From Bacteroidaceae bacterium (GTDB lineage Bacteria > Bacteroidota > Bacteroidia > Bacteroidales > Bacteroidaceae), in the NCBI GenBank assembly GCA_017524545.1, contig JAFXVN010000040.1, positions 50,985-74,984 on the forward strand: DNA of 24,000 nt, in the 5' to 3' direction. Each line of letters opens with the position of its first letter. Within the stretch, counting starts at the first letter, position 1. Below, in pieces: positions 3,869-24,000 of the stretch. The notes beneath the pieces were generated by a model, which was given only the letters and a program-made list of their open reading frames with translations, was not told the DNA's origin and made no database searches. The translations under genes were made by a program, and so were the position numbers.

Positions 3869-5461
3869 ATGAGAAAGACCATTTTATCTGCCTTTATTGC
3901 GCTGGCCTGTGCTGCAACGGCGATGGCTGCCGACAACGTGAAGGCAACAGTCCATGCTGACAAGGCAGGGGCAAAGATCAACCGCGAAATCTACGGACAG
4001 TTCTCCGAACACCTCGGCACCTGCATCTACGGCGGCCTTTGGGTGGGCGAAGGCTCTCAGATTCCCAACATCAACGGCTACCGCAAGGATGTGTTCGAAG
4101 CTTTGAAGGTGCTAAAGGTTCCCGTGCTGCGCTGGCCGGGCGGCTGTTTTGCCGACGACTACCACTGGATGGACGGCATCGGTCCTAAGAACCAGCGTCC
4201 ATCGCTGCGTAACAACAACTGGGGTGGCACCATCGAGGACAACTCGTTTGGTACCCATGAGTTTCTGAACCTCTGCGAGATGCTCGGCTGTGAACCCTAC
4301 ATCAGCGGCAACGTGGGTTCTGGCACGGTGAAGGAGATGGCGCAATGGGTGGAATATATGACCAGCGACGGTGATACGCCGATGGCACGGCTGCGTCGTC
4401 AGAATGGACGTGAAAAAGCATGGCACGTCAAATACTTCGGCATTGGCAACGAGGCCTGGGGCTGCGGTGGCAATATGACGCCCGAATACTACTCGGACGA
4501 GTTCCGCAAGTTTAACACCTATCTGCGCGACTATACTGGCAACAAGCTCTACCGCATCGGAAGCGGTGCCTCGGACTACGACTACAAGTGGACGGAGGTG
4601 CTGATGGACAGAATCGGCAATCGTATGCAGGGCGTGTCGTTACATTATTATACTTGCACGGGATGGGGCGGTCCGAAAGGCTCCGCCACGAAGTTCGACA
4701 ACGACCAGTACTACTGGGCTCTAGGCAAGTGTCTGGAGATTGAGGAGGTCATCAAGAAGCACAAGGCCATCATGGACAAGAAAGACCCCGAAGGCAGAGT
4801 GGGACTGCTCGTTGACGAATGGGGAACCTGGTGGGACGAAGAGCCAGGCACCATCAGCGGCCACCTCTACCAACAGAACGCCTTGCGTGACGCCTTCGTG
4901 GCAGCGCTGTCGCTGAACGTGTTCCATAAATATACCGAACGTGTGAAGATGGCGAATATCGCACAGGTTGTGAACGTGCTGCAGTCGATGATTCTGACCG
5001 ACCAAGAGGGCACGGGCCACATGGTGCTCACCCCGACCTACCACGTGTTTGAAATGTACACCCCTTTCCAGGAAGCCACCTATCTCCCGCTTGACCTTGA
5101 GAGCGAAATCATACAGGTGAGCAAGGCCTACTTCAAGGAGAAAGAAGGTGCGAGGGATGCCGGCTATCGTCCTTGCCCCATGCTCTCGGCCTCGGCTGCT
5201 AAGACTACCGACGGCAGCATCGTGCTGGCCGTTACCAACGTTTCGCTGGACAAGGCTCAGACCATCGACTTCGCCCTGGAAGGCTTTGCTGCAAAGACTT
5301 TCAGCGGTCGCATCCTCACCTCCGAGAATGTGGCTGACTTCAACGACTTCCAGCATCCCAACGTGGTGGCTCCCGCCGAGTTTAAGGATGCCAAGCTGAA
5401 AAAAGACGTGCTCACGGTGAAGATACCGGCAAAGTCCATCGTCGTGCTCAACATCAAGTAG
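3869..5461 (+). CDS. Glycoside hydrolase family 51 alpha-L-arabinofuranosidase, secreted
   Basis: 530-aa ORF with a signal peptide. It has [46 protein letters not shown] and [13 protein letters not shown], the characteristic GH51 blocks. Confidence 0.9.
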
Positions 5462-7171: not shown

Positions 7172-7255
7172 TATTTTCAAGGCGTGAAAATATATTATCA
7201 AGCTTTGAAAATATATTATCAAGCCTTGAAAATAGATTTTCAAAGCTTGAAAATA
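7172..7255. repeat. Four tandem 21-bp dyad-symmetric units (iteron or operator-like array)
   Basis: Units are TATTTTCAAGGCGTGAAAATA / TATTATCAAGCTTTGAAAATA / TATTATCAAGCCTTGAAAATA / GATTTTCAAAGCTTGAAAATA. Each has a TTTTCAAG..CTTGAAAA-type dyad, and the period is exactly 21 bp. Confidence 0.9.
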
Positions 7256-7263
7256 GTTTGTAA

Positions 7264-7307
7264 GCACGTTATGTGAGGTTTTATGGCACGCTCTGTGAGG
7301 TTTTATA
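7264..7307. repeat. Two tandem 22-bp direct repeats
   Basis: GCACGTTATGTGAGGTTTTATG / GCACGCTCTGTGAGGTTTTATA, followed by a partial GCAC. Confidence 0.85.
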
Positions 7308-7402
7308 GCACATTGTCCTCGGTTATTCTGCTGTATTGGCTTCCAGCCACAGAACATCTAATGACCGATTTGGAGTAATCAGAAAGATTTTTTTGCTTTC
7401 CC

Positions 7403-7479: not shown

Positions 7480-8793
7480 ATGAAGTTTTATGACCGAACA
7501 AACGAACTGCAAATACTGGCAGACATTGAGAAACAGTCGATGAAGTCGTCCACCTTTACTGTCCTGACAGGGAGGCGGCGTGTTGGCAAGACATCACTCA
7601 TCACTCATGCGATGGATGGCAAGACATACGCCTATCTTTTTGTGACAAAGGACAGGGAAGCTATGCTTTGTCAGAAGTTCCAGACGGCATTGGAGGAACA
7701 GATAGGATTGAAGGTCTATGGTACACTGAGCCGTTTCCGTGATGTCTTCAATGTCATCATGGAGGAGGCAAAAAGGCGGCATTTGACTGTGGTATTCGAC
7801 GAGTTCCAGACACTCTACAGCATCAATCCCGCCATCTTCAGCGAGATACAGGATGTGTGGGACCGTCATCACAATGAGGCACGCATCAACCTTATTGTAT
7901 CAGGCAGCATACAGTCGCTGATGAGACGTATCTTTGAGGAGAAGAATGAGCCGCTGTATGGCCGTCCAACGTCCAAGTTCGTCTTGCGTCCCTTCACCGT
8001 CAACGTGCTTAAACAGATTCTCGCTGATGCCTGTCCTACCTATTCGCCGGAGGACTTACTTTGTCTATATATGTTAACAGGCGGTGTGGCAAAGTATGTG
8101 GAGCTCCTTATAGATGCTGGCTGTACCACAAAGGAGAAGATGCTGAACTATGTCTGTCGTCAGGATTCCTACTTCCTCAGCGAAGGTCGCGACCTGCTTG
8201 GGAATGAGTTTTCTGGCGACTTTGGCACATATTTCTCCATTCTTCAGTTGATTGCCAGCGGGCAGACGAGACGAAGTGACATTGACGGAGCGCTTCAAAA
8301 GGACATGGGAACTTATCTCCAGAACCTTGAGAAGAATTATGAGATGATTTGCCGGCAAAAGCCTTTGCTTGCAAAAGACAATAGCAAGGTTTCGTCCTAC
8401 GAGATACGCGACAACTTCCTGCGTTTCTGGTTCCGCTTCGTTTATCCTTACCAGTCTGTCATAGAGCGTGGCATGTCACCGATGCTTAAAAAGAACATTC
8501 TGGAGAAGTATGAGCAGTTTACAGGTCGCACCCTGGAGCGATACTTCCAAGACAAGCTTATGGAGACGCAGCAATATACGCAGATAGGGAACTGGTGGGA
8601 TCGTAAAGGGGAGAACGAAATAAACCTGGTCGCTATCAATGAGTTTGACCATACAGGCATTGTTGCCGAAGTGAAACGTAATCCCCGCAAAATCAGTATG
8701 CAGGCATTAGAAGAGAAAATAGCTCACCTCCCTGCTTCAGACTTTGGCAGATACGACCTGCAACTGAAAGCGTTCTCGATGGAGGATATGTAA
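7480..8793 (+). CDS. AAA+ ATPase of the archaeal-ATPase/DUF234 type (COG1672-like)
   Basis: 437 aa with Walker A GRRRVGKTS and Walker B VVFDEFQ. It also has the DUF234-like IRDNFLRFWFRFVYPY block and a C-terminal WWDRKGENEINLVAI....AEVKRN segment. Confidence 0.85.
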   Translation: MKFYDRTNELQILADIEKQSMKSSTFTVLTGRRRVGKTSLITHAMDGKTYAYLFVTKDREAMLCQKFQTALEEQIGLKVYGTLSRFRDVFNVIMEEAKRRHLTVVFDEFQTLYSINPAIFSEIQDVWDRHHNEARINLIVSGSIQSLMRRIFEEKNEPLYGRPTSKFVLRPFTVNVLKQILADACPTYSPEDLLCLYMLTGGVAKYVELLIDAGCTTKEKMLNYVCRQDSYFLSEGRDLLGNEFSGDFGTYFSILQLIASGQTRRSDIDGALQKDMGTYLQNLEKNYEMICRQKPLLAKDNSKVSSYEIRDNFLRFWFRFVYPYQSVIERGMSPMLKKNILEKYEQFTGRTLERYFQDKLMETQQYTQIGNWWDRKGENEINLVAINEFDHTGIVAEVKRNPRKISMQALEEKIAHLPASDFGRYDLQLKAFSMEDM

Positions 8794-10509: not shown

Positions 10510-12309
10510 TTATCTGTTCACTACCTTCTCGAAGTAGTTGACAAAGGCTTGGTTGACGAGGCGGTTGCCGCCCGGGGTGGGGTACTTGCCGGTGAAGTAC
10601 CAGTCGCCTTGGTGGTCGGGACAGGCAGCATGAAGGCCTTCGATGGTCTGGAAGACGAACTCCACAGGCGCTTGCATCCCAGCAGGCCGCAGCATCTCTG
10701 CCATCTTGCGGTTGATGTCCTCGACGCTGAAAAGCTTGTATAAAGCAGAGACACAATTCTGCTGCTCATCCTTGGGCTTGCGGAGCTCGGCGAGACAAGC
10801 CTCGTAAGTGTCGTTCGTGAGCTGCCATAGACCACGCTCTTCGATGAGGGCAATGGTGGCGCGGAAAGCACAAAACTCCTCCAGCCGCGCCATGTCGATG
10901 CCGTAGTAGTCGGGGTAACGGATTTGTGGCGAACTGCTGACCATCACAATCTTCTTGGGATGCAAGCGGTCGAGAATCTTGAAAATGCTCTCCTTCAAGG
11001 TGGTGCCGCGAACGATAGAGTCGTCGATGATGACCAGATTGTCTTCGTAAGGTCGCAGCGAGCCATAGGTGATGTCATAGACGTGGGATGCGAGGTCGTT
11101 GCGAGAGCCAGCCTCGGTGATGAAGGTGCGCAGCTTGATGTCCTTCCAAGCCACCTTCTCGCTCCGCACGTTTAAGCCTTGGCTTCGCAGACCCTCCATC
11201 ATGCCATAGAAGGCGACCTCTGCCGTGTTAGGGATGAAGGAGAAAACGGTGTGGTCGGTATCGCCGTTGATGGCTTTAAGAATGGGAGCTGTGAGTTGTT
11301 GGCCGAGCTGCTTGCGCTCGTGATAGATGTCGCGGTCGGAGCCTCGGCTGAAGTAGATACGCTCAAACGAGCAGCGTGCCTGTGCCTTCTTCTCCAAGAT
11401 GGTCTCCAGAGAGGAACTGCCGTCCTTGTGTACGATGAGTGCCTGTCCTGCCGGCAACTCCTGCACATCCTCTACTTGCAGGTCGAAGGTGGTTTGCAGC
11501 ACAGCGCGTTCGCTGGCGACGGCAATCACCTCGTTGTCCTTGTGAAAGAAGGCCGGACGGATGCCCCAAGGGTCGCGCATGGCAAACATCTCGCCGCTGC
11601 CAGTCAGTCCGCACATCACATAGCCGCCGTCGTAGTCCTGCATCGTGGTTCGCAGCACATTGGCCATCTGCACGTGTCCCTCGATATAGTTGGTGATGTC
11701 TGTGTCCTGCAAGCCCAGCTCCTTTGCCTCCACGAAGCAACGCTCCACTTCCCTGTCGAGCCGATGCCCCATCCACTCCAGCGTGATGTACGAGTCGCTG
11801 TAGATGCGCGGCGACTGTCCTTGCCTGACCATCTTTGCGAAAATCTCGTCGATGTTGGTCATGTTGAAGTTCCCGCAAAGACACAGGTTCTTGGCTCGCC
11901 AGTTGTTGCGCCGCAGGAAAGGATGCACATATTGCAGCCCGCTCTTGCCCGTCGTGGAGTAACGGAGGTGGCCCATGTATAATTGACAATTGAAAATGGA
12001 TAATTGATAATTGGGACCTGCAGTGTCATTATCCATTGTCCATTGTCCATTATCCATTCTCTGAAATATTTCAGAAATAGCATCTTTGCCCTGCGCCCTT
12101 TCGCGGAACATGTACTCCATCCCGACGGGGGCATCCATGTTGACACAAGCGATGCCAGCACCCTCCTGCCCGCGATTGTGCTGCTTCTCCATCATAAGAT
12201 AGAGCTTGTTCAGGGCGTAAGACTTGGTGCCGTACTTCTGTTCGTAGTAGCTGATGGGCTTCAGAAGCCTCACCAAAGCCACACCGCATTCGTGCTTCAA
12301 CTCTTCCAC
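10510..12309 (-). CDS. purF: Amidophosphoribosyltransferase (long Bacteroidales type; class-II glutamine amidotransferase + PRTase)
   Basis: 599 aa with a GTG start and a short propeptide ending in the catalytic Cys (EELKHEC|GVALV). It has GHLRYSTTG and the PRPP motif LVIIDDSIVRGTT. It carries an in-frame AT-rich module at 11980-12057. Confidence 0.9.
   Translation of the reverse strand: MEELKHECGVALVRLLKPISYYEQKYGTKSYALNKLYLMMEKQHNRGQEGAGIACVNMDAPVGMEYMFRERAQGKDAISEIFQRMDNGQWTMDNDTAGPNYQLSIFNCQLYMGHLRYSTTGKSGLQYVHPFLRRNNWRAKNLCLCGNFNMTNIDEIFAKMVRQGQSPRIYSDSYITLEWMGHRLDREVERCFVEAKELGLQDTDITNYIEGHVQMANVLRTTMQDYDGGYVMCGLTGSGEMFAMRDPWGIRPAFFHKDNEVIAVASERAVLQTTFDLQVEDVQELPAGQALIVHKDGSSSLETILEKKAQARCSFERIYFSRGSDRDIYHERKQLGQQLTAPILKAINGDTDHTVFSFIPNTAEVAFYGMMEGLRSQGLNVRSEKVAWKDIKLRTFITEAGSRNDLASHVYDITYGSLRPYEDNLVIIDDSIVRGTTLKESIFKILDRLHPKKIVMVSSSPQIRYPDYYGIDMARLEEFCAFRATIALIEERGLWQLTNDTYEACLAELRKPKDEQQNCVSALYKLFSVEDINRKMAEMLRPAGMQAPVEFVFQTIEGLHAACPDHQGDWYFTGKYPTPGGNRLVNQAFVNYFEKVVNR
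11980..12057. repeat. AT-rich heptamer-periodic imperfect palindrome embedded in frame in purF (78 nt, 26 codons)
   Basis: The coding strand reads AATGGAT AATGGAC AATGGAC AATGGAT AATGAC, spacer actgcaggtc, then CCAATTAT CAATTAT CCATTTT CAATTGT CAATTA. It encodes MDNGQWTMDNDTAGPNYQLSIFNCQL immediately before the conserved YMGHLRYSTTG. Confidence 0.8.
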
Positions 12310-12367
12310 CTCTGCAATTTACAATTTGACGATTTACAATTTACGATTTATTTGTCGATTGGGCTAT
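12310..12367. repeat. Intercistronic AT-rich heptamer array (pyrG stop to purF GTG)
   Basis: The minus strand reads ...AATCGTA AATTGTA AATCGTC AAATTGTA AATTGcagagGTG. It is preceded by the CTATTTA G CTATTTA duplication that spans the pyrG stop. Confidence 0.85.
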
Positions 12368-14739
<2,372 letters not shown>

Positions 14740-14745
14740 GTGGAA

Positions 14746-14785
14746 GTGAATTATGAATTGTGAATTATGAATTATGAATTGTAAC
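14746..14785. repeat. Intercistronic AT-rich heptamer array (amtB end to porin ATG)
   Basis: The minus strand reads ACAATTCAT AATTCAT AATTCAC AATTCAT AATTCAC ttccacATG. The amtB stop (14772-14774) and its last codons lie inside the array. Confidence 0.85.
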
Positions 14786-16031
14786 AGAGTTCCCCATGCT
14801 CGTAAACATCCAGGCCCTCGTCCTCGATGCGGGCTGGCACTCGGAGACCGTGAAGCTTCTTGATGCCAAAGAAGAGAAGGAAGCCACAGGCGGCTGCCCA
14901 GAGGTCGATGATGAGAATGCCGAAGCACTCTGCTCCGAAGAAACCCCAGCCGTAGCCGTAGAGAGCGCCGTTGCTCGTGGAGAGCAGACCCGTCATTACA
15001 GTGCCGAGGATGCCGCAGACGCCGTGGACACTTGAGGCACCGACAGGGTCGTCGATGTGAAGCCTGTGGTCGATGAACTCGATGGAGAAGACCAAGACGG
15101 TTCCACAAACGAGGCCAATAACGACGGCACCGACGGGCGAAACGAGGTCGCAGCCTGCCGTGACACCCACAAGGCCAGCCAGCACGCCGTTCAACGTCAG
15201 GGAGAATGAGGGCTTCTTGTACCTCAGCCATGTAAGGAACATGGTGGCTACACCGCCTGCAGCTGCTGCGAGGTTGGTTGTCAGGAAGACGTGGCTGATG
15301 GCCATGCGATTGACCTCCCCACTGGCTGCCAGTTGTGAGCCTGGGTTGAAGCCGAACCATCCCATCCAGAGGATAAAGACACCGAGGGCTGCGAGGGTCA
15401 GCGAGTGGCCGGGAATGGCTCGGCTCTTGCCGTCCTTGCCGTATTTGCCTCGGCGAGCACCCAGTGCCAACGCTCCTATCAAAGCCAGCACACCGCCCAC
15501 ACTATGCACGATGGCCGAGCCTGCAAAGTCGTGGAAGACGTCGCCGAAGGTCTGCATCATGAAGCTATCTGCCGCATCATTGCAGAGCCAGCCGCCGCCC
15601 CAAGTCCAGTGGCCTTCGATGGGATAGATGAGCAGCGAAATGATGGCGCTATAGATGACGTACATTGAGAACTTAGTCCTCTCTGCCATCGCACCGCTGA
15701 CAATCGTGGCACTCGTGGCACAGAAGACCGTCTCGAAGATAAGGAAGCCCTCGACGGGCAATTCGCCCTTGTAGAAAGAGAGGTCGCCCCAATTGGGCAT
15801 CCCAATGAAGCCGCCAAGCGCGTCGGTACCGAACATCAGTCCAAAGCCCACGAACCAGAACAGCAACGAGCCGAACATGAAATCCACGAAATTCTTGAAG
15901 AGGATGTTGGCCGTGTTCTTGCTGCGTGTGAAGCCTGCCTCGCACAGCGCAAAACCCGGCTGCATGAAGAACACAAGCATAGCCGCCAACAACATCCATA
16001 CTGTATCTAATGAAAGTGCAATTTCGTTCAT
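14772..16031 (-). CDS. amtB: Ammonium transporter
   Basis: 419 aa with MQPGFALCEAGF, DFAGSAIVHSVGG, FGFNPGS, DDPVGASSVHGVCGILG and a C-terminal EGLDVYEHGE. Confidence 0.93.
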   Translation of the reverse strand: MNEIALSLDTVWMLLAAMLVFFMQPGFALCEAGFTRSKNTANILFKNFVDFMFGSLLFWFVGFGLMFGTDALGGFIGMPNWGDLSFYKGELPVEGFLIFETVFCATSATIVSGAMAERTKFSMYVIYSAIISLLIYPIEGHWTWGGGWLCNDAADSFMMQTFGDVFHDFAGSAIVHSVGGVLALIGALALGARRGKYGKDGKSRAIPGHSLTLAALGVFILWMGWFGFNPGSQLAASGEVNRMAISHVFLTTNLAAAAGGVATMFLTWLRYKKPSFSLTLNGVLAGLVGVTAGCDLVSPVGAVVIGLVCGTVLVFSIEFIDHRLHIDDPVGASSVHGVCGILGTVMTGLLSTSNGALYGYGWGFFGAECFGILIIDLWAAACGFLLFFGIKKLHGLRVPARIEDEGLDVYEHGELCYNS

Positions 16032-16073
16032 AATCCTTTTAATCTTTTTAACCTTTTATCTTTTTACTTTTTA
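16032..16073. repeat. Intercistronic purine-rich 7-9 nt array (glnK end to amtB ATG)
   Basis: The minus strand reads AAAAAGT AAAAAGAT AAAAGGTT AAAAAGATT AAAAGGATT ATG. The glnK stop (16064-16066) lies inside the array. Confidence 0.85.
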
Positions 16074-16411
16074 TCACGTAGTACCGTGTCACCATGTTCG
16101 CCTGTGCGGATGCTCCAGGTGTCAATTATGTCGCTCACAAAGATGCGACCGTCGCCTACTTCGCCCGTATGAGCTGTGTCGATGATGACCTTCACGGTCG
16201 GTTCTACAAACTGGTCGCGACACACGATGGTCAACGCCACACGCTCTATGACATCCGTCGAGTACTGGACGCCACGATAGATGCGCTCCTGTCGGCTCTG
16301 GCCGATGCCGTGCACGTCGTGATACTCAAACCAGTCAATGTCCGACGAGAGCAATGCCTCCTTGACATCCTCGAACTTGGTCTTCCTGATGATTGCTTCA
16401 ATCTTCTTCAT
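16064..16411 (-). CDS. glnK: Nitrogen regulatory protein P-II
   Basis: 115 aa: MKKIEAIIRKTKFEDVKEAL...GQSRQERIYRGVQY (T-loop)...TGEVGDGRIFV. It lies directly upstream of amtB. Confidence 0.93.
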   Translation of the reverse strand: MKKIEAIIRKTKFEDVKEALLSSDIDWFEYHDVHGIGQSRQERIYRGVQYSTDVIERVALTIVCRDQFVEPTVKVIIDTAHTGEVGDGRIFVSDIIDTWSIRTGEHGDTVLRDKK

Positions 16412-16670: not shown

Positions 16671-17492
16671 ATGAAACAAAAGATACACTTCACGAAGATG
16701 CACGGCTGCGGCAACGACTATATCTATGTTGATACATTATTATATAATATAGAAGAGCCGTCGAAGTTAGCCTGCCTGTGGAGCGACCGTCATAAGGGCA
16801 TCGGTTCGGACGGGCTGGTGCTGATAGGGCGCAGCCCCATCCCTGAAGCGGATTTCACGATGCGCATCTTCAATGCCGACGGTTCGGAAGCGAAAATGTG
16901 CGGCAATGCCAGCCGCTGCATCGGAAAGTATCTTTATGAAAAGGGACTGACCTTGCAAACCCAAATCAGGCTGCTCACGCTCTCTGGCGTAAAAGTACTC
17001 AGCCTGCATTTGAATGACGGCTTCGTAGAAAGCGTGACGGTCGATATGGGCGAGCCGATGTTTGAGAACCCTAAGCAGTTTATGCCTTGCAGCGAGATAC
17101 TGCCACGAGGGTGCTTCGTAAGCATGGGCAACCCTCATTATGTCGTCTTCGTGGGCGATGTGGAACATACTGATGTCGCAGGCAGAGGCTTGCGACTGGA
17201 AAACCACCCTGCGTTTCCTGAACGCGCTAACATCGAATTTGCCGAAATGCGTCCTGACGGCATTCGAGTGCGCGTTTGGGAGCGCGGCAGTGGCATCACG
17301 ATGGCCTGCGGCACAGGAGCCTGCGCTACGGCTGTGGCTGCCTGCAAGACTGGACGCGCCGGACGCAAGAACCGTATCATCATGGACGGCGGCACCCTCG
17401 ACGTCGAATGGCGCGAAGCAGACAACCACGTCTATCTGTCAGGGCCAGCAGAGTTTGTATTCGAAGGAGAAATCGAGTTATTTACTATTTGA
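16671..17492 (+). CDS. dapF: Diaminopimelate epimerase
   Basis: 273 aa with [15 protein letters not shown], the catalytic Cys motifs MCGNASRC and MACGTGACA, and SMGNPHYV. Confidence 0.93.
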
Positions 17493-17587
17493 CGATTTAC
17501 TATTTACAATTTATTTTGTCATTTAGATATTTATTCATTCCGCAGTTAAAGTGAAATCGCCAAATAGTAAAGTCGTAAATAAATAGG
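17481..17587. repeat. AT-rich inverted repeat / long hairpin spanning the dapF stop
   Basis: TTTACTATTTGACGATTT (17481-17498) is complementary to AAATCGCCAAATAGTAAA (17554-17571) at 17 of 18 positions. The arms themselves contain TTTACTATTT direct repeats. Confidence 0.75.
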
Positions 17588-17627
17588 ACTCCGCGACTAC
17601 AATCGCGCCTTTGTCTTAAAGGATCAA

Positions 17628-17662
17628 AGAAATCGTAAATTTGTAAATCGTAAATAAAAGAG
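17628..17662 (+). repeat. AT-rich heptamer array immediately 5' of the dapL ATG
   Basis: GAAATCGTA AATTTGTA AATCGTA AATAAAAGAG ATG. Confidence 0.8.
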
Positions 17663-18829
17663 ATGATAAACCAGAACTACCTGAAACTCTCCGAGTCCTA
17701 TCTCTTCTCTGAGATTGCCCGGAAAGTGAAAGCATACAAGCAGGAAAATCCAGAAGCCGACATCATCAGTCTTGGCATAGGTGATGTGACTCAGCCGCTC
17801 GCCCCAGCAGTCATAGAGGCTCTGCATAAAGCGACGGACGAGATGGCCCAGAGCGCGACTTTTCGCGGCTATGGCCCAGAGCGCGGCTACGACTTCCTGC
17901 GTGAAGCCATCGTGCAGAACGATTTCCGCGCTTGTGGCATAGACATTGAGGCGGACGAAGTATTTGTGAGCGACGGAGCCAAGAGCGACACCGGAAACTT
18001 TCAGGAGCTTCTTTCGGCAGATTGTGTTGTGGCCGTCACTGACCCTGTTTATCCCGTGTATATCGACGCAAACACAATGGCAGGAAGGCGTATCATCAAG
18101 CTACCCTGCACACCCGAGAACGGCTTTGTGCCCGAATTGCCCACAGAGCATGTGGATGTTATTTACCTCTGTTATCCCAACAACCCGACAGGCACGACGC
18201 TGACTCGTGAGCAGCTGAAGAAGTGGGTGGATTATGCTCTGGCGAATGATGCGCTCATCTTCTACGATGCGGCATACGAAGCATATATCGCGAGCGAGGA
18301 CGTGCCGCACAGCATCTACGAGATTCCTGGCGCGAAGCAATGTGCTGTGGAGTTCCACTCATACTCCAAGACGGCAGGTTTCACAGGCATCCGTTGCGGA
18401 TATACGGTGGTGCCAAAAGCCTTGAAGGTCAATCTCAACCCGCTTTGGAACCGCCGACAATCCACGAAGTTCAACGGCACAAGCTACCTCAGTCAGCGTG
18501 CTGCCGAAGCTATCTATACCCCCGAAGGCAAGGCTCAGATTAAGGCGACTATCGCTTACTATATGGAGAATGCCCGACTGATGCGCGAGGCACTCACAAA
18601 CATGGGCTTCAAGGTCTATGGTGGCAAAGATGCACCTTACCTTTGGGTCAGCACGCCAAACGACATGAGTTCATGGGAGTTCTTCGACTGGATGCTCCAC
18701 TCGGCACATGTTGTCTGCACGCCTGGCGCAGGCTTTGGCCCAAGTGGCGAGGGCTTTGTTCGCCTCACAGCCTTTGGCACACACGTGAACACAGAGAAGG
18801 CACTTTGCCGCATCGCAAATAAATTGTAA
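17663..18829 (+). CDS. dapL: LL-diaminopimelate aminotransferase
   Basis: 388 aa with [30 protein letters not shown], and the PLP lysine region [15 protein letters not shown]. Confidence 0.9.
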
Positions 18830-18854
18830 AATTGTCAGATTGTAAAATTGTCAG
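18823..18854 (+). repeat. Perfect 16-bp tandem duplication bridging the dapL stop and the gltB ATG
   Basis: ATTGTAAAATTGTCAG occurs twice (18823-18838 and 18839-18854). The first copy contains the dapL TAA, and the second ends at the gltB ATG (18855). Confidence 0.9.
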
Positions 18855-21800
18855 ATGAATAAAGGACTTTATAGTGAAGCATACGAGCACGATGCCTGCG
18901 GCGTGGGCATGGTAGTGAACATTCACGGCGGCAAGAGTCACGAGTTGGTGGATAATGCGCTGAAGGTGCTGGAAAACATGGAGCATCGGGGTGCCGAGAC
19001 CAGGGACAAGACGGGCGACGGAGCCGGTATCATGGTGCAGATTCCGCACGAGTTCATCCTCTTGCAAGGCATTCCTGTTCCCGAGAAAGGTCGGTACGGC
19101 ACGGGGCTTGTGTTCCTTCCAAAGGATGAAAAGGCTCAGCAAACGATTCTTAGCGTGATGATAGAAGAGATTGAGCGCGAGGGACTGGAACTGATGCATG
19201 TGAGGGCAGTGCCGACGTGTCCCGAGGCTTTGGGTGCTGGGGCAAAGGAAGTGGAGCCGGAAATAAAGCAGATATTCGTGACGGGTGTGACGGAGGAACA
19301 GGCTCCGACGCTCGACCGCATATTATATAAGGTAAGGAAACGCATCGAGAACCGCATTACTGATGAGGACTTCTACATCTGTTCGCTTTCGTCAAAGAAT
19401 CTTATCTACAAGGGTATGCTGACCAGCGGGCAGTTGAGACGATATTTCCCCGACTTGTCAAGCCCTTACTTTACGAGCGGTCTTGCGCTGGTTCACTCGC
19501 GCTTCTCGACCAACACCTTCCCGAAGTGGAAACTGGCGCAGCCTTTCCGCTTGCTGGCTCATAATGGCGAAATCAACACCATTCGCGGCAATCGCGGTTG
19601 GATGAAGGCGAGGGAGAGTGTGCTTTCGAGCGAGGCTTTGGGCGACATCAAGGACTTGCGGCCTATCGTGCAGGAAGGCATGAGCGACTCGGCTTCGCTC
19701 GACAATGTCTTTGAGTTCCTCACTATGAGCGGCCTCTCTCTGCCGCAGGCGATGGCGATACTCGTGCCTGAGAGCTTCAACGACAAGAATCCTATCAGCG
19801 AGGATTTGAAGGCCTTCTATGAATATCACTCCATCCTGATGGAGCCTTGGGACGGGCCTGCGGCTTTGCTGTTTAGCGATGGACGCTTTGCAGGCGGTAT
19901 GCTCGACAGGAATGGTTTGCGCCCAAGCCGTTACACGATAACGAAGCAAGGCATGATGGTCGTGGCGAGCGAGGTCGGCGTGATGGACTTCGAACCGAGC
20001 GACGTGGTGAGCAAAGGGCGTTTGCAGCCGGGAAAGATTCTGCTCATCGACACGCAGGAAGGCAAGATATACTACGACGGCGAGATTAAGGAGCAGTTGG
20101 CGAAGGCGCATCCTTACAGGGAATGGCTCTCGACGAACCGCATCCAGCTGGAGAAACTCAAGAGCGGTCGGCATGTGGAGAACTCGGTGGAGAACTACGA
20201 GCGCAAGCTCATCACCTTCGGCTTCGGTCAGGAAGACATCGACAGAGCCATCATTCCGATGGCAACAGCAGGACAGGAGCCTGTTGCAGCGATGGGCAAC
20301 GACACGCCGCTGGCAGTCATCAGCGACCGTCCGCAGATTCTCTTCAACTACTTCCGCCAGCAGTTTGCGCAGGTAACGAACCCCGCTATTGACCCTATTC
20401 GTGAGGAACTGGTGATGAGCCTTACAGAATACATCGGAGCCGTCGGCACAAACATCCTCACGCCCGATGCCTCGAACTGCAAGATGGTTCGCCTGCCGCA
20501 GCCCGTGCTCACGAACACGCAACTCGACATCCTATGTAATATAAGGTATAAGGGATTTAAGACAATCAAGTTGCCAATGACCAGCCCCCTCCCAACCTTC
20601 CCCAAGGGGGAGGAGCCAGATTGGGATAAGGCCGGCGAGGCATTGAGAAATGCACTTGACAAGCTTTGTAAAGATGCAGAAGAAGCAGTAGATAACGGGT
20701 ATAACTATATCATACTGACTGACAAGATAGATCTCCTCCCCCTTGGGGGAGGTCGGGAGGGGGCTTTCTACATACCCTCATTGTTGGCTGTGAGTGCCGT
20801 TCATCACTATCTGATTAGTGTCGGCAAGCGCGTACAGACGGCTCTTATTGTGGAGAGCGGCGAGATTCGCGAAGTGATGCACGCGGCTTTGTTGTTAGGC
20901 TATGGGGCAAGTGCCATTTGTCCCTATATGACTTTTGCTGTGCTGGACGACCTCGTGAAGCGACACAAGATACAAGAAGAGTATGCCACAGCAGAAGCGA
21001 ACTACATCAAGGCGGTCGATAAGGGCTTGAAGAAAGTGATGTCGAAGATGGACATCTCAACCATCCGCAGCTATCGTGGCGCAAAGATATTCGAGAGCAT
21101 CGGACTGAGCGAAGATTTGCTGAGAAGGTACTTCGGAACAGAAGTCAGCACTATTGGCGGCATAGGGCTGAAGGAAATTGCGAGGGATGCGATTCGCTTG
21201 CACGAGGAGGCCTTTGGTTGGGTATGTCGCGTTGGCAACGCGACATACGGGACGCCAGCCCTCCAAAATAACGGTCAGTTCTCTTGGCGCAAGGACGGCA
21301 TCCTTCATGCTTGGAATCCCGACACGATTGCCAACCTGCAGATTGCCACAAGGCTTGGTTCTTACAAGAAGTTCAAGGAGTGGGCAAAGCTTGTCGATGA
21401 GAAGGAGAAGCCCATCTTCATTCGCGACTTCTTTGGCTTCAAGAAGGCTGCAAAGCCAACGCCTCTCGAGGAGGTGGAGCCAGTGGAAAGCATCGTGCGG
21501 CACTTCGTGACGGGAGCGATGAGTTTTGGTGCTTTGAGCATCGAGGCACACGAGGCACTTGCTTTGGCTATGAACAAGCTGGGCACGCGAAGCAACACAG
21601 GCGAAGGCGGCGAGGACAATGCCCGCTACCATTCGGAGGTCGATGGTGTTTCGCTCTCCAGCAAGACCAAGCAGATTGCCAGTGGTCGATTTGGCGTGAC
21701 GGCGGAATACCTTGTCAATGCCGAAGAGATACAGATTAAGGTTGCCCAGGGCGCGAAGCCTGGCGAAGGCGGACAGCTGCCTGGCTTCAAGGTGAACGAG

Positions 21801-23411
21801 ATTATCGCCAAGACACGAAATGCCATTCCTGGGATTAGCTTGATAAGTCCACCACCGCATCACGACATCTATTCTATCGAAGACCTTGCGCAGCTTATCT
21901 TCGACTTGAAGAATATCAATCCGACGGCTGCCGTGAGCGTCAAACTTGTTGCCGAGAGTGGCGTAGGAACCATTGCCGCTGGTGTGGCAAAGGCAAAGGC
22001 CGACCTGATAGTCATCAGCGGCAGTGAGGGCGGTACCGGTGCTTCGCCTGCTTCGAGTATGCGCTTTGCAGGCATCAGTCCTGAGATTGGACTTGCCGAG
22101 ACGCAGCAGACGCTCGTTATCAATGGGCTTCGTAACCAAGTTCGCCTCCAAACGGACGGGCAGTTGAAGACAGCAAAGGATGTCATCATCATGGCGATGC
22201 TTGGTGCGGACGAGTTCTCGTTTGGCACTCTGCCACTGATTGTTCTTGGTTGCGTGATGATGCGCAAGTGCAACACGAACACTTGTCCCGTTGGTGTGGC
22301 GACACAAGATGAAAGGCTGAGGGCGCGTTTCATGGGCAAGGCAGAGTATGTGGTGAACTTCTTCACCTTCCTTGCCGAGCAGGTTCGCGAGTACCTTAGC
22401 GAGATGGGAGTGCATAAACTAAAGGACATCATCGGCCATACAGAATTGATAGAGATAAAGACCGCAACTGCAACTGACAAGCAGAAGACCATCGACTTCA
22501 GCCGTTTGCTGCACAAGCCAGAGACGGATAAACCGCTCCATTGGGACAGAGGCGAGTTCACGAAGGTCAGTGGCGTGAAGGATGAGGAGATTATCAAGGC
22601 TGCACAGAAGAGCATTGACGATCAGGAAGAGATAACGCTTGACTTTGCCATCAAGAATACCGACCGCGCAGTTGGCACGATGCTATCAGGCATGATTGCC
22701 AAGAAATATGGTGAGGCTGGTTTGCCCGACGGCACGATTAACATCAAGTTCAAGGGTTCGGCTGGCCAAAGCTTTGGTGCTTTTGCAGTTCGAGGTCTGA
22801 ACCTCAGGCTCGAAGGCGAGACGAACGACTACTTCGGCAAGGGGTTGAGTGGCGGACGCATCAGCATCCTGCCTCCTGCGAGGAGTAATGCGGAGTTCCA
22901 TGCAGAGGACAATATCATCGCAGGCAACACAGGCCTCTATGGCGCGACGAGCGGCGAGCTGTATGTCAACGGTCGCGTGGGCGAACGCTTTGGCGTGCGC
23001 AACTCTGGAGCTATTGCCGTCATAGAAGGCGCAGGCGACCATTGTTGCGAGTACATGACTGGCGGTCGGGTGGTTGTTCTTGGCAAGACGGGGCGCAACT
23101 TCGCAGCCGGTATGAGTGGCGGCGTCGCTTACGTCTATGACCCAGACCACACCTTCGACTACTTCTGCAACATGGACATGGTGGAGATAAACCTTGTGGA
23201 GGACACCGTCTCGCGCAAGGAACTGCTCGAACTTATCCGTCAGCATTACCTCCACACAGGTTCTGCTCTTGCAGGACGGATGCTCGATGACTGGCAGCGC
23301 TACGTCGAGGACTTCATACAAGTCGTGCCAATCGAGTACAAGCGCGTCCTCGAAGAAGAAAAGATGAAAGAACTGCAACGGAAAATTGCAGAGGTACAAC
23401 GCGACTACTGA
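18855..23411 (+). CDS. gltB: Glutamate synthase large subunit
   Basis: 1518 aa with the N-terminal amidotransferase Cys (EHDAC|GVGMV), the FMN and 3Fe-4S region (CVMMRKCNTNTCPVGVATQD), and the GXGXG C-terminal domain. It carries three in-phase palindromic modules. Confidence 0.95.
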   Translation: MNKGLYSEAYEHDACGVGMVVNIHGGKSHELVDNALKVLENMEHRGAETRDKTGDGAGIMVQIPHEFILLQGIPVPEKGRYGTGLVFLPKDEKAQQTILSVMIEEIEREGLELMHVRAVPTCPEALGAGAKEVEPEIKQIFVTGVTEEQAPTLDRILYKVRKRIENRITDEDFYICSLSSKNLIYKGMLTSGQLRRYFPDLSSPYFTSGLALVHSRFSTNTFPKWKLAQPFRLLAHNGEINTIRGNRGWMKARESVLSSEALGDIKDLRPIVQEGMSDSASLDNVFEFLTMSGLSLPQAMAILVPESFNDKNPISEDLKAFYEYHSILMEPWDGPAALLFSDGRFAGGMLDRNGLRPSRYTITKQGMMVVASEVGVMDFEPSDVVSKGRLQPGKILLIDTQEGKIYYDGEIKEQLAKAHPYREWLSTNRIQLEKLKSGRHVENSVENYERKLITFGFGQEDIDRAIIPMATAGQEPVAAMGNDTPLAVISDRPQILFNYFRQQFAQVTNPAIDPIREELVMSLTEYIGAVGTNILTPDASNCKMVRLPQPVLTNTQLDILCNIRYKGFKTIKLPMTSPLPTFPKGEEPDWDKAGEALRNALDKLCKDAEEAVDNGYNYIILTDKIDLLPLGGGREGAFYIPSLLAVSAVHHYLISVGKRVQTALIVESGEIREVMHAALLLGYGASAICPYMTFAVLDDLVKRHKIQEEYATAEANYIKAVDKGLKKVMSKMDISTIRSYRGAKIFESIGLSEDLLRRYFGTEVSTIGGIGLKEIARDAIRLHEEAFGWVCRVGNATYGTPALQNNGQFSWRKDGILHAWNPDTIANLQIATRLGSYKKFKEWAKLVDEKEKPIFIRDFFGFKKAAKPTPLEEVEPVESIVRHFVTGAMSFGALSIEAHEALALAMNKLGTRSNTGEGGEDNARYHSEVDGVSLSSKTKQIASGRFGVTAEYLVNAEEIQIKVAQGAKPGEGGQLPGFKVNEIIAKTRNAIPGISLISPPPHHDIYSIEDLAQLIFDLKNINPTAAVSVKLVAESGVGTIAAGVAKAKADLIVISGSEGGTGASPASSMRFAGISPEIGLAETQQTLVINGLRNQVRLQTDGQLKTAKDVIIMAMLGADEFSFGTLPLIVLGCVMMRKCNTNTCPVGVATQDERLRARFMGKAEYVVNFFTFLAEQVREYLSEMGVHKLKDIIGHTELIEIKTATATDKQKTIDFSRLLHKPETDKPLHWDRGEFTKVSGVKDEEIIKAAQKSIDDQEEITLDFAIKNTDRAVGTMLSGMIAKKYGEAGLPDGTINIKFKGSAGQSFGAFAVRGLNLRLEGETNDYFGKGLSGGRISILPPARSNAEFHAEDNIIAGNTGLYGATSGELYVNGRVGERFGVRNSGAIAVIEGAGDHCCEYMTGGRVVVLGKTGRNFAAGMSGGVAYVYDPDHTFDYFCNMDMVEINLVEDTVSRKELLELIRQHYLHTGSALAGRMLDDWQRYVEDFIQVVPIEYKRVLEEEKMKELQRKIAEVQRDY
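20583..20615. repeat. 33-nt GC-rich palindromic unit, reverse orientation, in phase in gltB
   Basis: AGCCCCCTCCCAACCTTCCCCAAGGGGGAGGAG is 11 codons, SPLPTFPKGEE. It differs at 1 nt from the reverse complement of the pyrG unit at 13631-13663. Confidence 0.9.
20733..20765. repeat. 33-nt GC-rich palindromic unit, forward orientation, in phase in gltB
   Basis: CTCCTCCCCCTTGGGGGAGGTCGGGAGGGGGCT is 11 codons, LLPLGGGREGA. It differs at 1 nt from the pyrG unit and matches 31 of 33 positions as an inverted repeat of 20583-20615. Confidence 0.9.
21222..21248. repeat. 27-nt perfect palindrome in phase in gltB
   Basis: GTATGTCGCGTTG-G-CAACGCGACATAC has 13-bp perfect arms and a 1-nt centre. It is exactly 9 codons (VCRVGNATY) and starts on a codon boundary. 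Confidence 0.85.
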
Positions 23412-23418
23412 TAAATTT

Positions 23419-23492
23419 GACAATTGGACAATTTACAATTGGACAATTGCCACAAAGAAATTGTAAAATTGTGAAATCGTAAAATTGTAAAA
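23419..23492. repeat. Segmented AT-rich hairpin plus octamer array between gltB and gltD
   Basis: The left arm has ACAATT four times (23420-23448) and the right arm AATTGT/AATCGT four times (23459-23488), with a 10-nt loop. The right arm runs into AAAATATCAAG ATG (gltD). Confidence 0.85.
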
Positions 23493-23499
23493 TATCAAG

Positions 23500-24000
23500 A
23501 TGGGAAATCCTAAAGCATTTCTGACTGTGCCTCGCAAAGAGGCTGGATACAGACCGATTCACGACCGCATACATGACTTTGGCGAAGTGGAACAGACGCT
23601 CAACACGCGCGACAGGCAGGAACAGGCCAGCCGTTGCATGGATTGCGGCGTGCCTTTCTGCCATTGGGCTTGTCCGTTGGGCAACAAGGACCCCGAATGG
23701 AATGACGCGCTTTACAAAGGAGAGTGGGAAACGGCCTACAAGCTCTTGAAGAAGACCAATCCCTTCCCTGAGTTCACAGGCCGCATCTGCCCTGCGCTTT
23801 GCGAGAAGGCTTGCGTGCTCTATCATACCACGGGCGAGGCTGTCACCAATCGCGAGAATGAATGTGCCATTGCCGAGCGAGCCTTCCTGGAAGGATATGT
23901 GACCATTGAGCACCCCAAGCGCAACGGACTTCGCGTGGCTGTCGTCGGTAGTGGTCCTGCAGGTCTTGCAGCAGCCAATGCCCTCAACCTTATGGGTTAT
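23500..24000 (+). CDS. gltD: Glutamate synthase small subunit (NADPH), 5' part; continues beyond the window
   Basis: MGNPKAFLTVPRKEAGYRPIHDRIHDFGEV...ASRCMDCGVPFCH...CPLGN...FPEFTGRICPALCEKAC...VAVVGSGPAGLAAA. The frame is open to position 24000. It is absent from the ORF track because no stop lies in the window. Confidence 0.9.
   Translation, partial: MGNPKAFLTVPRKEAGYRPIHDRIHDFGEVEQTLNTRDRQEQASRCMDCGVPFCHWACPLGNKDPEWNDALYKGEWETAYKLLKKTNPFPEFTGRICPALCEKACVLYHTTGEAVTNRENECAIAERAFLEGYVTIEHPKRNGLRVAVVGSGPAGLAAANALNLMGY

Follow-up and report, generated by a model that had tools for sequence, protein, structure and literature searches.

Rickettsia palindromic elements (RPEs) are known as in-frame insertions in metabolic genes that are otherwise unrelated (Ogata et al. 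2000, as reviewed in PMC10969869). Here we describe a comparable arrangement in a 24,000-nt stretch of DNA from a Bacteroidaceae bacterium (contig JAFXVN010000040.1, positions 50,985 to 74,984, in the following called the window), where a 78-nt hairpin built of heptanucleotide repeats is predicted to be read through as protein within purF, the gene for amidophosphoribosyltransferase. On balance, we lean towards reading this segment as a translated, tolerated and self-propagating foldback repeat residing at a cassette hot spot, and the best reading of its behaviour, by analogy, would be that of a Rickettsia palindromic element built from heptamer arrays. As far as RPEs are covered by that review, the two are alike in being small palindromic repeats that lie in frame in housekeeping genes, at fold-tolerant places, and are translated. 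Neither has its own transposase, and the families they form, in our case as seen for a sister type of the window's hairpin, are dispersed and keep their reading frame. In the same account, RPEs are unique-sequence elements of about 100-150 bp from an obligate intracellular alphaproteobacterium, whereas the cassettes described here have arms of heptamer arrays and reside in free-living rumen Bacteroidota. The cassettes further differ in forming an allelic series (empty, AT-rich and GC-rich) at one site, with a history decoupled from that of the gene, and they show no sequence relationship to RPEs. At our locus the palindromic insert is in frame and read as protein: five orthologues have an open frame across it, and the closest homologues lack it. 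Dispersed conserved copies in unrelated genes were found for a sister family of the window's hairpin (type B, in purF, asnB, carA and carB), whereas the window's own type (type A) was seen in purF alone in the DNA available. Membership in a described RPE family was ruled out, as the host is a Bacteroidaceae or Prevotella-like metagenome-assembled genome (MAG) from the rumen and the heptamer arms have no unique-sequence core.

Tandem heptanucleotide repeats comparable to the present arrays are also known from cyanobacteria, as short tandemly repeated repetitive (STRR) arrays. Among bacteria in general, heptanucleotide repeats were described as the most abundant class of long simple sequence repeats (LSSRs), with polymerase slippage proposed as their source; long repeats of this kind were placed in intergenic regions or in RNA genes, and those inside coding regions were mainly multiples of three (Mrazek 2007, as cited in PMC4679880). 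LSSR and STRR arrays resemble ours in their copy number of about 3-10, lineage-specific abundance, many unit variants and frequent inversion, and differ in that the units described here, not being triplets, are read as protein at recurrent loops.

Two further systems invite comparison. DNA uptake sequences in genes of Pasteurellaceae and Neisseriaceae occupy the least constrained parts of proteins and are spread by recombination (PMC2817400). Short repeats in coding regions, recombination in place of transposition and frequent inverted pairs are common to these sequences and to the cassettes, but uptake sequences follow one consensus motif per lineage, whereas the cassettes comprise more than 100 unit types, in a host whose competence is not established. 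No single motif was over-represented in related DNA, the 236 arrays yielding 103 canonical units without a consensus, and an uptake sequence was rejected on this ground. Repetitive extragenic palindromic sequences (REPs) and bacterial interspersed mosaic elements (BIMEs), associated with REP-associated tyrosine transposases (RAYTs), share with the cassettes the hairpin-forming repeats and the lack of target duplications. REPs are extragenic, 20-40 nt long and headed by a conserved GTAG or CGTC; the purF element is intragenic, with periodic arms of 34-37 nt and neither head, and this class was dismissed as well. For Prevotella or other Bacteroidota, our search of the literature brought up no account of heptamer foldbacks lying in frame, nor of hairpin cassettes that occur as alleles.

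The heptamer hairpin within purF

The purF gene (long-type amidophosphoribosyltransferase) lies on the minus strand at 10510-12309 as an intact open reading frame (ORF) of 599 aa with a GTG start, and its product carries the Cys nucleophile (CGV), the GHLRYSTTG motif and the PRTase motif VIIDDSIVRGTT. The protein is a 100% match to a rumen MAG protein named amidophosphoribosyltransferase by NCBI and matches solved PurF structures in the PDB with E of about 1e-22. In Pfam it gave nothing at E <= 1e-5, and its relatives gave just faint GATase_6/7 matches.

A preliminary description of the window had placed the peptide MDNGQWTMDNDTAGPNYQLSIFNCQL just upstream of YMGHLRYSTTG and had seen in its DNA two inverted runs of about five heptamers each, separated by a 10-nt spacer; our analysis agrees on both. 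The protein reads ...DAISEIFQR-MDNGQWTMDNDTAGPNYQLSIFNCQL-YMGHLRYSTTG, with the frame open through the whole 78-nt hairpin. In the sense orientation the 5' arm (12057-12024, minus strand) is ATGGATA ATGGACA ATGGACA ATGGATA ATGACA, that is, four and a half ATGGAYA heptamers coding for (R)MDNGQWTMDND. The spacer at the tip, CTGCAGGTCC (12023-12014, minus strand, 10 nt), codes with the adjoining bases for DTAGP, and the 3' arm (12013-11977, minus strand), CAATTAT CAATTAT CCATTTT CAATTGT CAATTATAC, consists of five CAATTRT/CCATTTT heptamers coding for NYQLSIFNCQLY. The arms fuse with native codons, QWT corresponding to native EWT and the final units of the 3' arm being the native Q-L-Y codons in an AT-rich form. 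Tandem Repeats Finder called period 7 with 5.0 copies at 11979-12013 and 4.6 copies at 12027-12058, and autocorrelation reached 0.67 at lag 7 and 0.54 at lag 14 against 0.19-0.35 at the remaining lags, so both arms have three or more tandem 7-nt units, as LSSR and STRR arrays do. The arms pair as a 30-nt inverted repeat with 87% complementarity, meaning that terminal inverted repeats are present, and the predicted RNA fold has -22 kcal/mol (z = -2.4), with 4 of 200 shuffled sequences folding equally well. A degenerate pattern of the arm had six matches in the window, all of them in the purF hairpin, for an expectation of 0.01. The hairpin probably belongs to a lineage-specific class made of two inverted runs of about five heptamers round a short spacer.

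The units also avoid stop codons, as the preliminary description had observed. In the window ATGGATA changes to ATGGACA exactly at the phase that would read TAA, and in a sister allele (L007) CATTGAC changes to CATTCAC or CATTGTT exactly where the phase gives TGA. Directly 5' of the hairpin (12060-12075, minus strand) lies a perfect 16-nt palindrome, TCTGAAATATTTCAGA, spanning the codons S-E-I-F-Q-R; the same or a related palindrome was found in most other genomes with the window's cassette allele, and the 5' flank of about 20 nt that includes it is common to the window and L001. On the plus strand, antisense to purF, 11983-12011 resembles a sigma-70 promoter (TTGACA-17-GATAAT, 11 of 12 positions); such matches arise in the hairpin because the heptamer periodicity yields TTGACA-like and GATAAT-like units. 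The promoter consensus of Bacteroidota differs from that of sigma-70, which makes the relevance of this match doubtful.

Position in the protein and comparison with relatives

Loop length was taken as the distance from NRGQEGAG to GHLRYST in 279 PurF sequences, namely 120 proteins and 159 related loci (160 were fetched, including the window itself), for which the contigs of close purF relatives were recovered one by one. The loop has 60 residues in the window, 44 in its closest relatives and 41-44 in most other rumen Prevotella. Where the window has the hairpin, the closest relatives carry a 13-residue loop, DLVTPEWTSAQLF (44-residue context ...EIFDLVTPEWTSAQLFMGH), for which the cassette substitutes with a net gain of 16 residues. 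In the Segatella copri group a conserved 63-residue version is found, with a different 20-residue segment at the loop in which no tandem array was called. The length difference from PurF homologues that the preliminary description had anticipated is therefore real, and the segment is not universal among them, because the nearest homologues lack it. By this comparison, the purF segment is an insertion or replacement and not an ancestral part of the gene.

Aligned to Arabidopsis ATase2 (6lbp), the extra residues face the gap between the helix ...VSEVF and the strand IAIGHVRYST. The solved PurF structures have a short loop at the insert point, and the alignment to E. coli PurF begins only downstream of it. 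Since an AlphaFold2 model of the window PurF, built on a 42-sequence alignment, reached a mean predicted local distance difference test (pLDDT) score of 48 and was too poor for loop placement or a fold search, the placement rests on the alignment to solved structures. So aligned, the cassette falls in the glutaminase domain of PurF, in what is probably a permissive loop on the surface, with the helix ...SEIF on one side and the strand before GHLRYST on the other.

A hypervariable cassette site

Across rumen Prevotellaceae the purF loop presents at least 12 alternative alleles in three states, having no insert, an AT-rich heptamer hairpin or a GC-rich palindromic element, and about 29 distinct long loop sequences can be grouped as AT and GC classes. 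Among AT hairpins, type A, which is that of the window, was also found in L001, P0003-5, P0051 and L095, type B (NAI[DE]HSPLTIDHC...NNGQCSMLNGQL) in L007, P0012 and L097, and type C (DRLGNGKMKEDND...NSQFSILNSQL) in L002 and many proteins, while L099 and L128 hold other AT-rich heptamer hairpin alleles. The GC-rich palindromic alleles have lengths of 46, 50, 61, 62, 70, 76, 85 and 88 residues. Both classes form hairpins though their sequences are unrelated.

The state of the loop changes between otherwise nearly identical proteins. Loop state differs in 42 of the 276 pairs (15%) whose identity outside the loop is 99% or more, and in 258 of 973 pairs when the limit is set at 97% or more. The type-B protein P0012, for instance, is 98.7% identical outside the loop to P0029, which has a GC-rich element of 46 residues, 98.2% identical to P0046, which has no insert, and 97.3% identical to P0045, with a GC-rich element of 76 residues. 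Such comparisons identify the purF loop as a hypervariable cassette hot spot and the segment in the window as one allele among many.

Identity along the gene was compared in 90-nt windows. Set against L168 (P0006), which has a GC cassette, our sequence shows 94-100% identity immediately 3' of the loop and 86-96% on the 5' side, the loops themselves being unrelated. Set against L001, the 90-nt windows of the cassette are 95-98% identical on a backbone of just 73-88%, and a pyrG array 1.1 kb away likewise peaks, at 96%. The type-B locus L161 agrees with L162, which has no insert, at 96-100% for over 1 kb on the 3' side of the loop and at 83-89% on the 5' side, and between L007 and L161 identity peaks at 87-92% around the loop as against 62-82% elsewhere. 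Types A and B were each found on backbones 13-29% divergent. Moreover, the flanks of the window allele (QRMD...QLY) resemble the RID...GQLY loop of another clade, with 43-residue loops (43-type), and not the TPEW of its own clade. All this points to a cassette history that is decoupled from the history of the purF gene.

Cassettes in other genes

Heptamer arrays are the dominant tandem repeat of this rumen Prevotella-like lineage. In 1.17 Mb of related DNA, tandem repeats of at least 3.5 copies numbered about 240 arrays, of which 146 have period 7, 49 period 8 and 16 period 9, and about half lie within long ORFs, at recurring positions. Per 10 kb, seven extra loci fetched from close relatives by purF hold 5.3 arrays, rumen-type loci 2.3 and S. 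copri-type loci 0.64. Hairpin pairs of arrays, searched in 1.24 Mb of related DNA, were intragenic in 17 of 20 cases.

The window is a nitrogen-assimilation locus, with glnB(P-II)-amt-porin-like-pyrG-purF on the minus strand (12368-16411) and dapF-aminotransferase-gltB and a next gene on the plus strand (16671-24000); in relatives, asnB, carAB and glmS follow purF. Hot spots equivalent to the purF loop were found in pyrG, asnB, carA and carB. In pyrG two of them show allelic variety like that of purF. One holds an in-frame GC-rich palindromic insert of 78 nt (13586-13663, minus strand, -44 kcal/mol); in related GC elements an inverted repeat AGACCC...GGGTCT encloses two CCCCTCCC-N5-GGGAGGGG hairpins, and these elements share their hot spots with AT hairpins in purF, pyrG, asnB and carA of relatives. 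The other holds a single in-frame heptamer array (12605-12640, minus strand; GAAAGTG AAAAGTT AAAAGTG...) just before ERHRHRYE, at a site that is multi-allelic among relatives, with 23 to 60 residues.

The first site in asnB is empty in L164 (WSEEPGIKRYY), filled by an in-frame hairpin in L163 (9400-9525; GTGAAGA ATTAAGA ... CACTCTT CATTCTT), and filled by the same hairpin plus three GAAGAAT units in L161 (6190-6330), where a TGA in frame results from the extra units and gene calling splits the gene into 192 + 410 aa. The split may reflect a true pseudogene or switch caused by the repeat, or else a faulty assembly. The second asnB site (RTNPEAKMC|PGSTIEKK) is empty in most genomes, contains type B twice in tandem in L163 and a GC-type element in L161 and L164. 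In carB of L109 a type-B hairpin stands in place of the native EIKIADIATSLH. In carA (L030, L122, L006, L103 and L096) complementary heptamer arrays occupy two loops around a conserved 22-residue segment, DYGSVNWVEKVSCKEVITY, with predicted folds of -46 kcal/mol in L030, -40 in L122 (for example 4236-4373) and -29 in L006, and complementarity is higher in native than in shuffled loop pairs (permutation p = 0.009). The carA gene of L082 is broken at an array.

The left arm of type B, CCATTGACCATTCACCATTGACCATTGACCATT, is identical in purF, asnB (in both tandem copies), carA and carB, with spacers that differ. This identity includes the irregular second unit CATTCAC, which avoids the TGA of CATTGAC in this phase, and since the irregular unit is shared by four genes, stop avoidance is a property of the family and not only the result of local purging. 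It suggests that the repeat may already have been frame-compatible when it was copied. The same sharing weighs against a purely in situ origin, by which native short inverted repeats would have been expanded by slippage, independently at each site and in each lineage, without copying between loci or genomes. As native seeds for such growth, 43-type loops have GTTGAC...GTCAAC, 44-type loops AATGGACAAATG and asnB GTGAAGA, a change of unit number is seen in asnB, and a heptamer slippage bias was proposed for bacteria generally, according to the citation of Mrazek 2007 in PMC4679880. Independent growth would hardly produce identical arms with the same irregular unit in four genes, nor one allele on backbones just 71-88% identical with the cassette more similar than its flanks, nor window flanks of the 43-type in a clade whose own loop has TPEW, and we give this explanation little credence.

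Similarly improbable is a classical foldback element moved by a transposase encoded elsewhere, whose in-frame insertion into purF survived by luck. [quoted passage not shown] In-frame MITE insertions are known elsewhere (PMC10969869). On the other hand, comparison of filled and empty sites in purF, asnB and carB revealed no target-site duplication, replacement with microhomology being found instead. Native residues are replaced and not merely interrupted, copies differ in arm units, spacers and unit number, and in carA the arms are split by conserved native coding sequence. A sequence-specific transposase is also unlikely because the units are of 103 different kinds.

Scanning of viral contigs with the type-B arm gave no match. 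The type-A unit matched 37 contigs, about ten of which match by chance within the coding sequence (KWTMDNGQ) of a conserved phage gene and were set aside. Several others, in unrelated contigs of 46-62% G+C, are hairpins built in the same way. In IMG/VR, intergenic hairpins with AATGGAC... / ...ATTGTCA or AATTATC arms, often enclosing a GC-rich inner stem, were seen in L189 (6976-7080), L171, L182, L186, L191, L204 and L205. Foldbacks of such build exist outside Prevotella, given their presence in these contigs, which we take as a lead and not as evidence.

Repeats of a different class lie at 7172-7311 of the window, upstream of an ATPase_2/DUF234 gene (7480-8793), and consist of a 21-nt unit in four copies (TATTATCAAGCCTTGAAAATA) followed by a 22-nt unit in 2.2 copies.

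Translation, constraint and RNA structure

The five type-A orthologues (the window, L001, L165, L166 and L167) have the same length and unit number and an open frame. The residues DTAGP of the spacer are invariant in all five, with third positions varying at four of five codons, a pattern that is, at the codon level, the signature of a translated and selected turn. Amino-acid changes in the arms affect 6 of 23 positions, a proportion as in the rest of the enzyme. Assembly artefact was rejected, the cassette being present, always in frame, in independent assemblies from several projects, and so was an intron, intein or translational bypass, given the absence of stops and a frame kept in every case.

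Several observations weigh against the reading of the segment as a tolerated, self-propagating repeat. Third positions vary at only 7 of 23 codons in the arms versus 400 of 564 elsewhere (p = 1e-4), and conserved two-fold codons at 1 of 8 versus 111 of 184 (p = 0.01); the contrast is weaker against neighbouring 20-codon windows (7 variable sites versus 10-14). This synonymous conservation could be due to the youth of the allele, to homogenisation against other copies or to selection at the nucleotide level, and it is the main uncertainty of our interpretation. RNAalifold kept a consensus stem of 29 pairs in the five orthologues, with one compensatory change besides a few pair breaks, although these sequences hold too little variation for a covariation test to decide. 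Within the DNA examined, which comprised 24 kb of the source genome and flanks of about 10 kb in relatives, the type-A hairpin was found only in purF, and dispersal is consequently shown for the sister type-B family and not for type A. The sampled hot spots are all in glutamine amidotransferases because asnB, carAB and glmS follow purF in relatives; their restriction to one nitrogen-metabolism cluster may be an effect of centring the sampling on purF, the alternative being a pathway-specific role. Finally, all cassette examples come from metagenome or MAG assemblies, and the purF loop has no long insert in L009 and L020, which are the fetched loci that come from genomes of rumen isolates.

Some of these observations would be expected if the hairpin were a functional cis-element selected at the nucleic-acid level, with the peptide as a by-product. 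This is a serious, if unlikely, rival, which could take the form of an mRNA structure in a long nitrogen-metabolism transcript (for protection, processing or ribosome pacing), on the model of REP hairpins, which stabilise upstream messages, or that of a DNA structure or protein-binding array. Besides the conserved synonymous positions and the retained stem with its compensatory pair, it would account for arm complementarity that is specific to the family, as the pairing of left with right arms is strongest within an allele family, for complementarity recreated across a conserved coding segment in carA, for hairpins in AT and GC cassettes of unrelated sequence, and for intergenic hairpins of the same build at gene junctions. 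Against such a function, the hairpin is dispensable, because relatives with 97-99% identical proteins carry none at the purF site. The diversity of units is extreme, the z-score of the fold is modest, several substitutions break pairs, and templated mutation can yield complementarity without selection. Rfam returned nothing at the gathering threshold in the window and nothing at E <= 1 in 11800-12500, nor are terminator features seen; an intrinsic terminator was rejected, as 11700-12500 contains no terminator-like site, with a G+C-rich stem and a T run.

Intergenic hairpins and leader arrays

The preliminary description had recognised the architecture of the purF hairpin in an intergenic one, and this parallel holds. 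The hairpin at 23414-23493 (plus strand), between gltB and the next gene, has two inverted arrays of 7/8-nt units, a build as in purF, and folds with -20.6 kcal/mol (z = -3.6). It starts 3 nt past the stop codon of gltB, and the next gene has the 3' arm as its leader, so that a terminating ribosome could open the hairpin, which is possibly a translational-coupling device. A second intergenic hairpin of inverted arrays lies at 17479-17590 (plus strand).

Most intergenic arrays are single, structure-free leader arrays whose units carry stops. In the window, single A-rich arrays of 7/8-nt units were found on the minus strand at 12315-12350, 14747-14780 and 16031-16075, and on the plus strand at 17630-17655, 18821-18856 and 23458-23493, in each case ending 0-12 nt upstream of a start codon on the sense strand. 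That of purF itself (12315-12350, AAATCGT/AAATTGT) ends a few bases before the start codon, and the three that were folded (purF, porin-like and gltB) are predicted to be free of structure (z > 0). Such arrays may be elements for Shine-Dalgarno-independent initiation in Bacteroidota. In being heptamer direct repeats a few nucleotides before start codons, those at 12315-12350 and 18821-18856 are like the TAACTGA leader repeats described from Beggiatoaceae, Cyanobacteria and some Bacteroidetes (PMC4679880). That system uses one specific heptamer, while the purF element is an inverted pair, intragenic and made of other units. Several database homologues of PurF are 35-70 residues longer at the N-terminus, possibly through gene callers reading through the stop-poor leader region.

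The 3' arm of the purF hairpin followed by ATG resembles a leader array followed by ATG, and internal initiation had been raised in the preliminary description. An internal start at M112 driven by the A-rich 3' arm, or a contingency (phase-variation) switch, which a 7-nt unit not divisible by three could provide, nevertheless seems highly improbable to us. Genuine leader arrays are unpaired, whereas the 3' arm in purF is sequestered in a stem, and a product starting at M112 would have neither Cys1 nor the first 110 residues of the Ntn fold. The N-terminal cysteine is the catalytic nucleophile of PurF. As for a switch, the premature stop from array expansion in asnB of L161 and the broken carA of L082 are what it would produce, but purF is a housekeeping gene and its five orthologues keep an open frame and an identical unit number, so the variation between strains envisaged earlier did not appear among them. 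Neither a frameshift at the loop nor an out-of-frame unit number occurs in any of the 279 purF sequences; on these counts there is no evidence of phase variation at purF, and a phase-variable contingency locus was rejected.

Discussion

The preliminary description had proposed that an intergenic-type repeat colonised a coding sequence and was then purged of stops. The first part stands insofar as the segment is an insertion or replacement that shares its build with intergenic hairpins of the window. Calling it intergenic-type is less apt given that most hairpin pairs are intragenic, and in place of a single colonisation we see one allele at a hypervariable site, with a history decoupled from that of the gene. 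Purging after arrival is doubtful in view of the irregular CATTCAC unit that purF, asnB, carA and carB have in common.

The foldback-repeat reading that we favour could work as follows. Arrays would arise and change size by 7-nt replication slippage, the survivors inside genes being restricted to 21-nt steps and stop-free units. Unit number, for comparison, is constant among the five purF orthologues, and asnB has three more units in L161 than in L163. The inverted arm would be made, and kept complementary, by templated copying, either through intra-strand template switching or through ectopic short-patch conversion, with microhomology to native codons, for instance ATTGAC...GTCAAT or AATGGACA, as a guide. 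Microhomology of this kind is found between GAA-TGG-ACA-AAT of 44-type loops and the AATGGAC units, in GTTGAC...GTCAAC of 43-type loops and in AGTGAAGAG of asnB. Cassette alleles could then pass between co-resident strains via short-patch recombination, with selection acting mainly as a filter for frame, stops and the turn at the loop tip, and the cassette peptide would be a tolerated excursion and not a catalytic part. The replacement of native residues, the generated complementarity and the lack of target duplication fit templated copying better than cut-and-paste transposition.

It is also conceivable, though in our estimate not probable, that the cassettes are actively driven or selected, either by a homing-like or uptake-biased molecular drive or as intragenic mRNA or DNA structures whose arm complementarity is kept, even across conserved coding sequence as in carA. 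If molecular drive were at work, short loop segments of housekeeping genes would be replaced across species boundaries, and in either version the core genes of rumen Prevotellaceae would contain a previously undescribed layer of hypervariable, structure-forming cassettes.

If the foldback-repeat reading is correct, core enzymes of dominant rumen bacteria bear interchangeable, translated hairpin cassettes in their surface loops. For annotation and phylogenetics this would mean that loops can be non-homologous between near-identical genes, that repeat expansion may lead to apparent pseudogenes and that read-through of leader arrays may inflate N-termini. The cassettes would provide many natural strain markers and, for protein evolution, a ready source of new surface peptides, and they would make it possible to study in nature how 7-nt slippage proceeds, how inverted repeats are created from a template and how co-resident species exchange short patches. 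The phenomenon of selfish palindromes inside genes would then reach beyond reduced intracellular genomes to free-living gut anaerobes.

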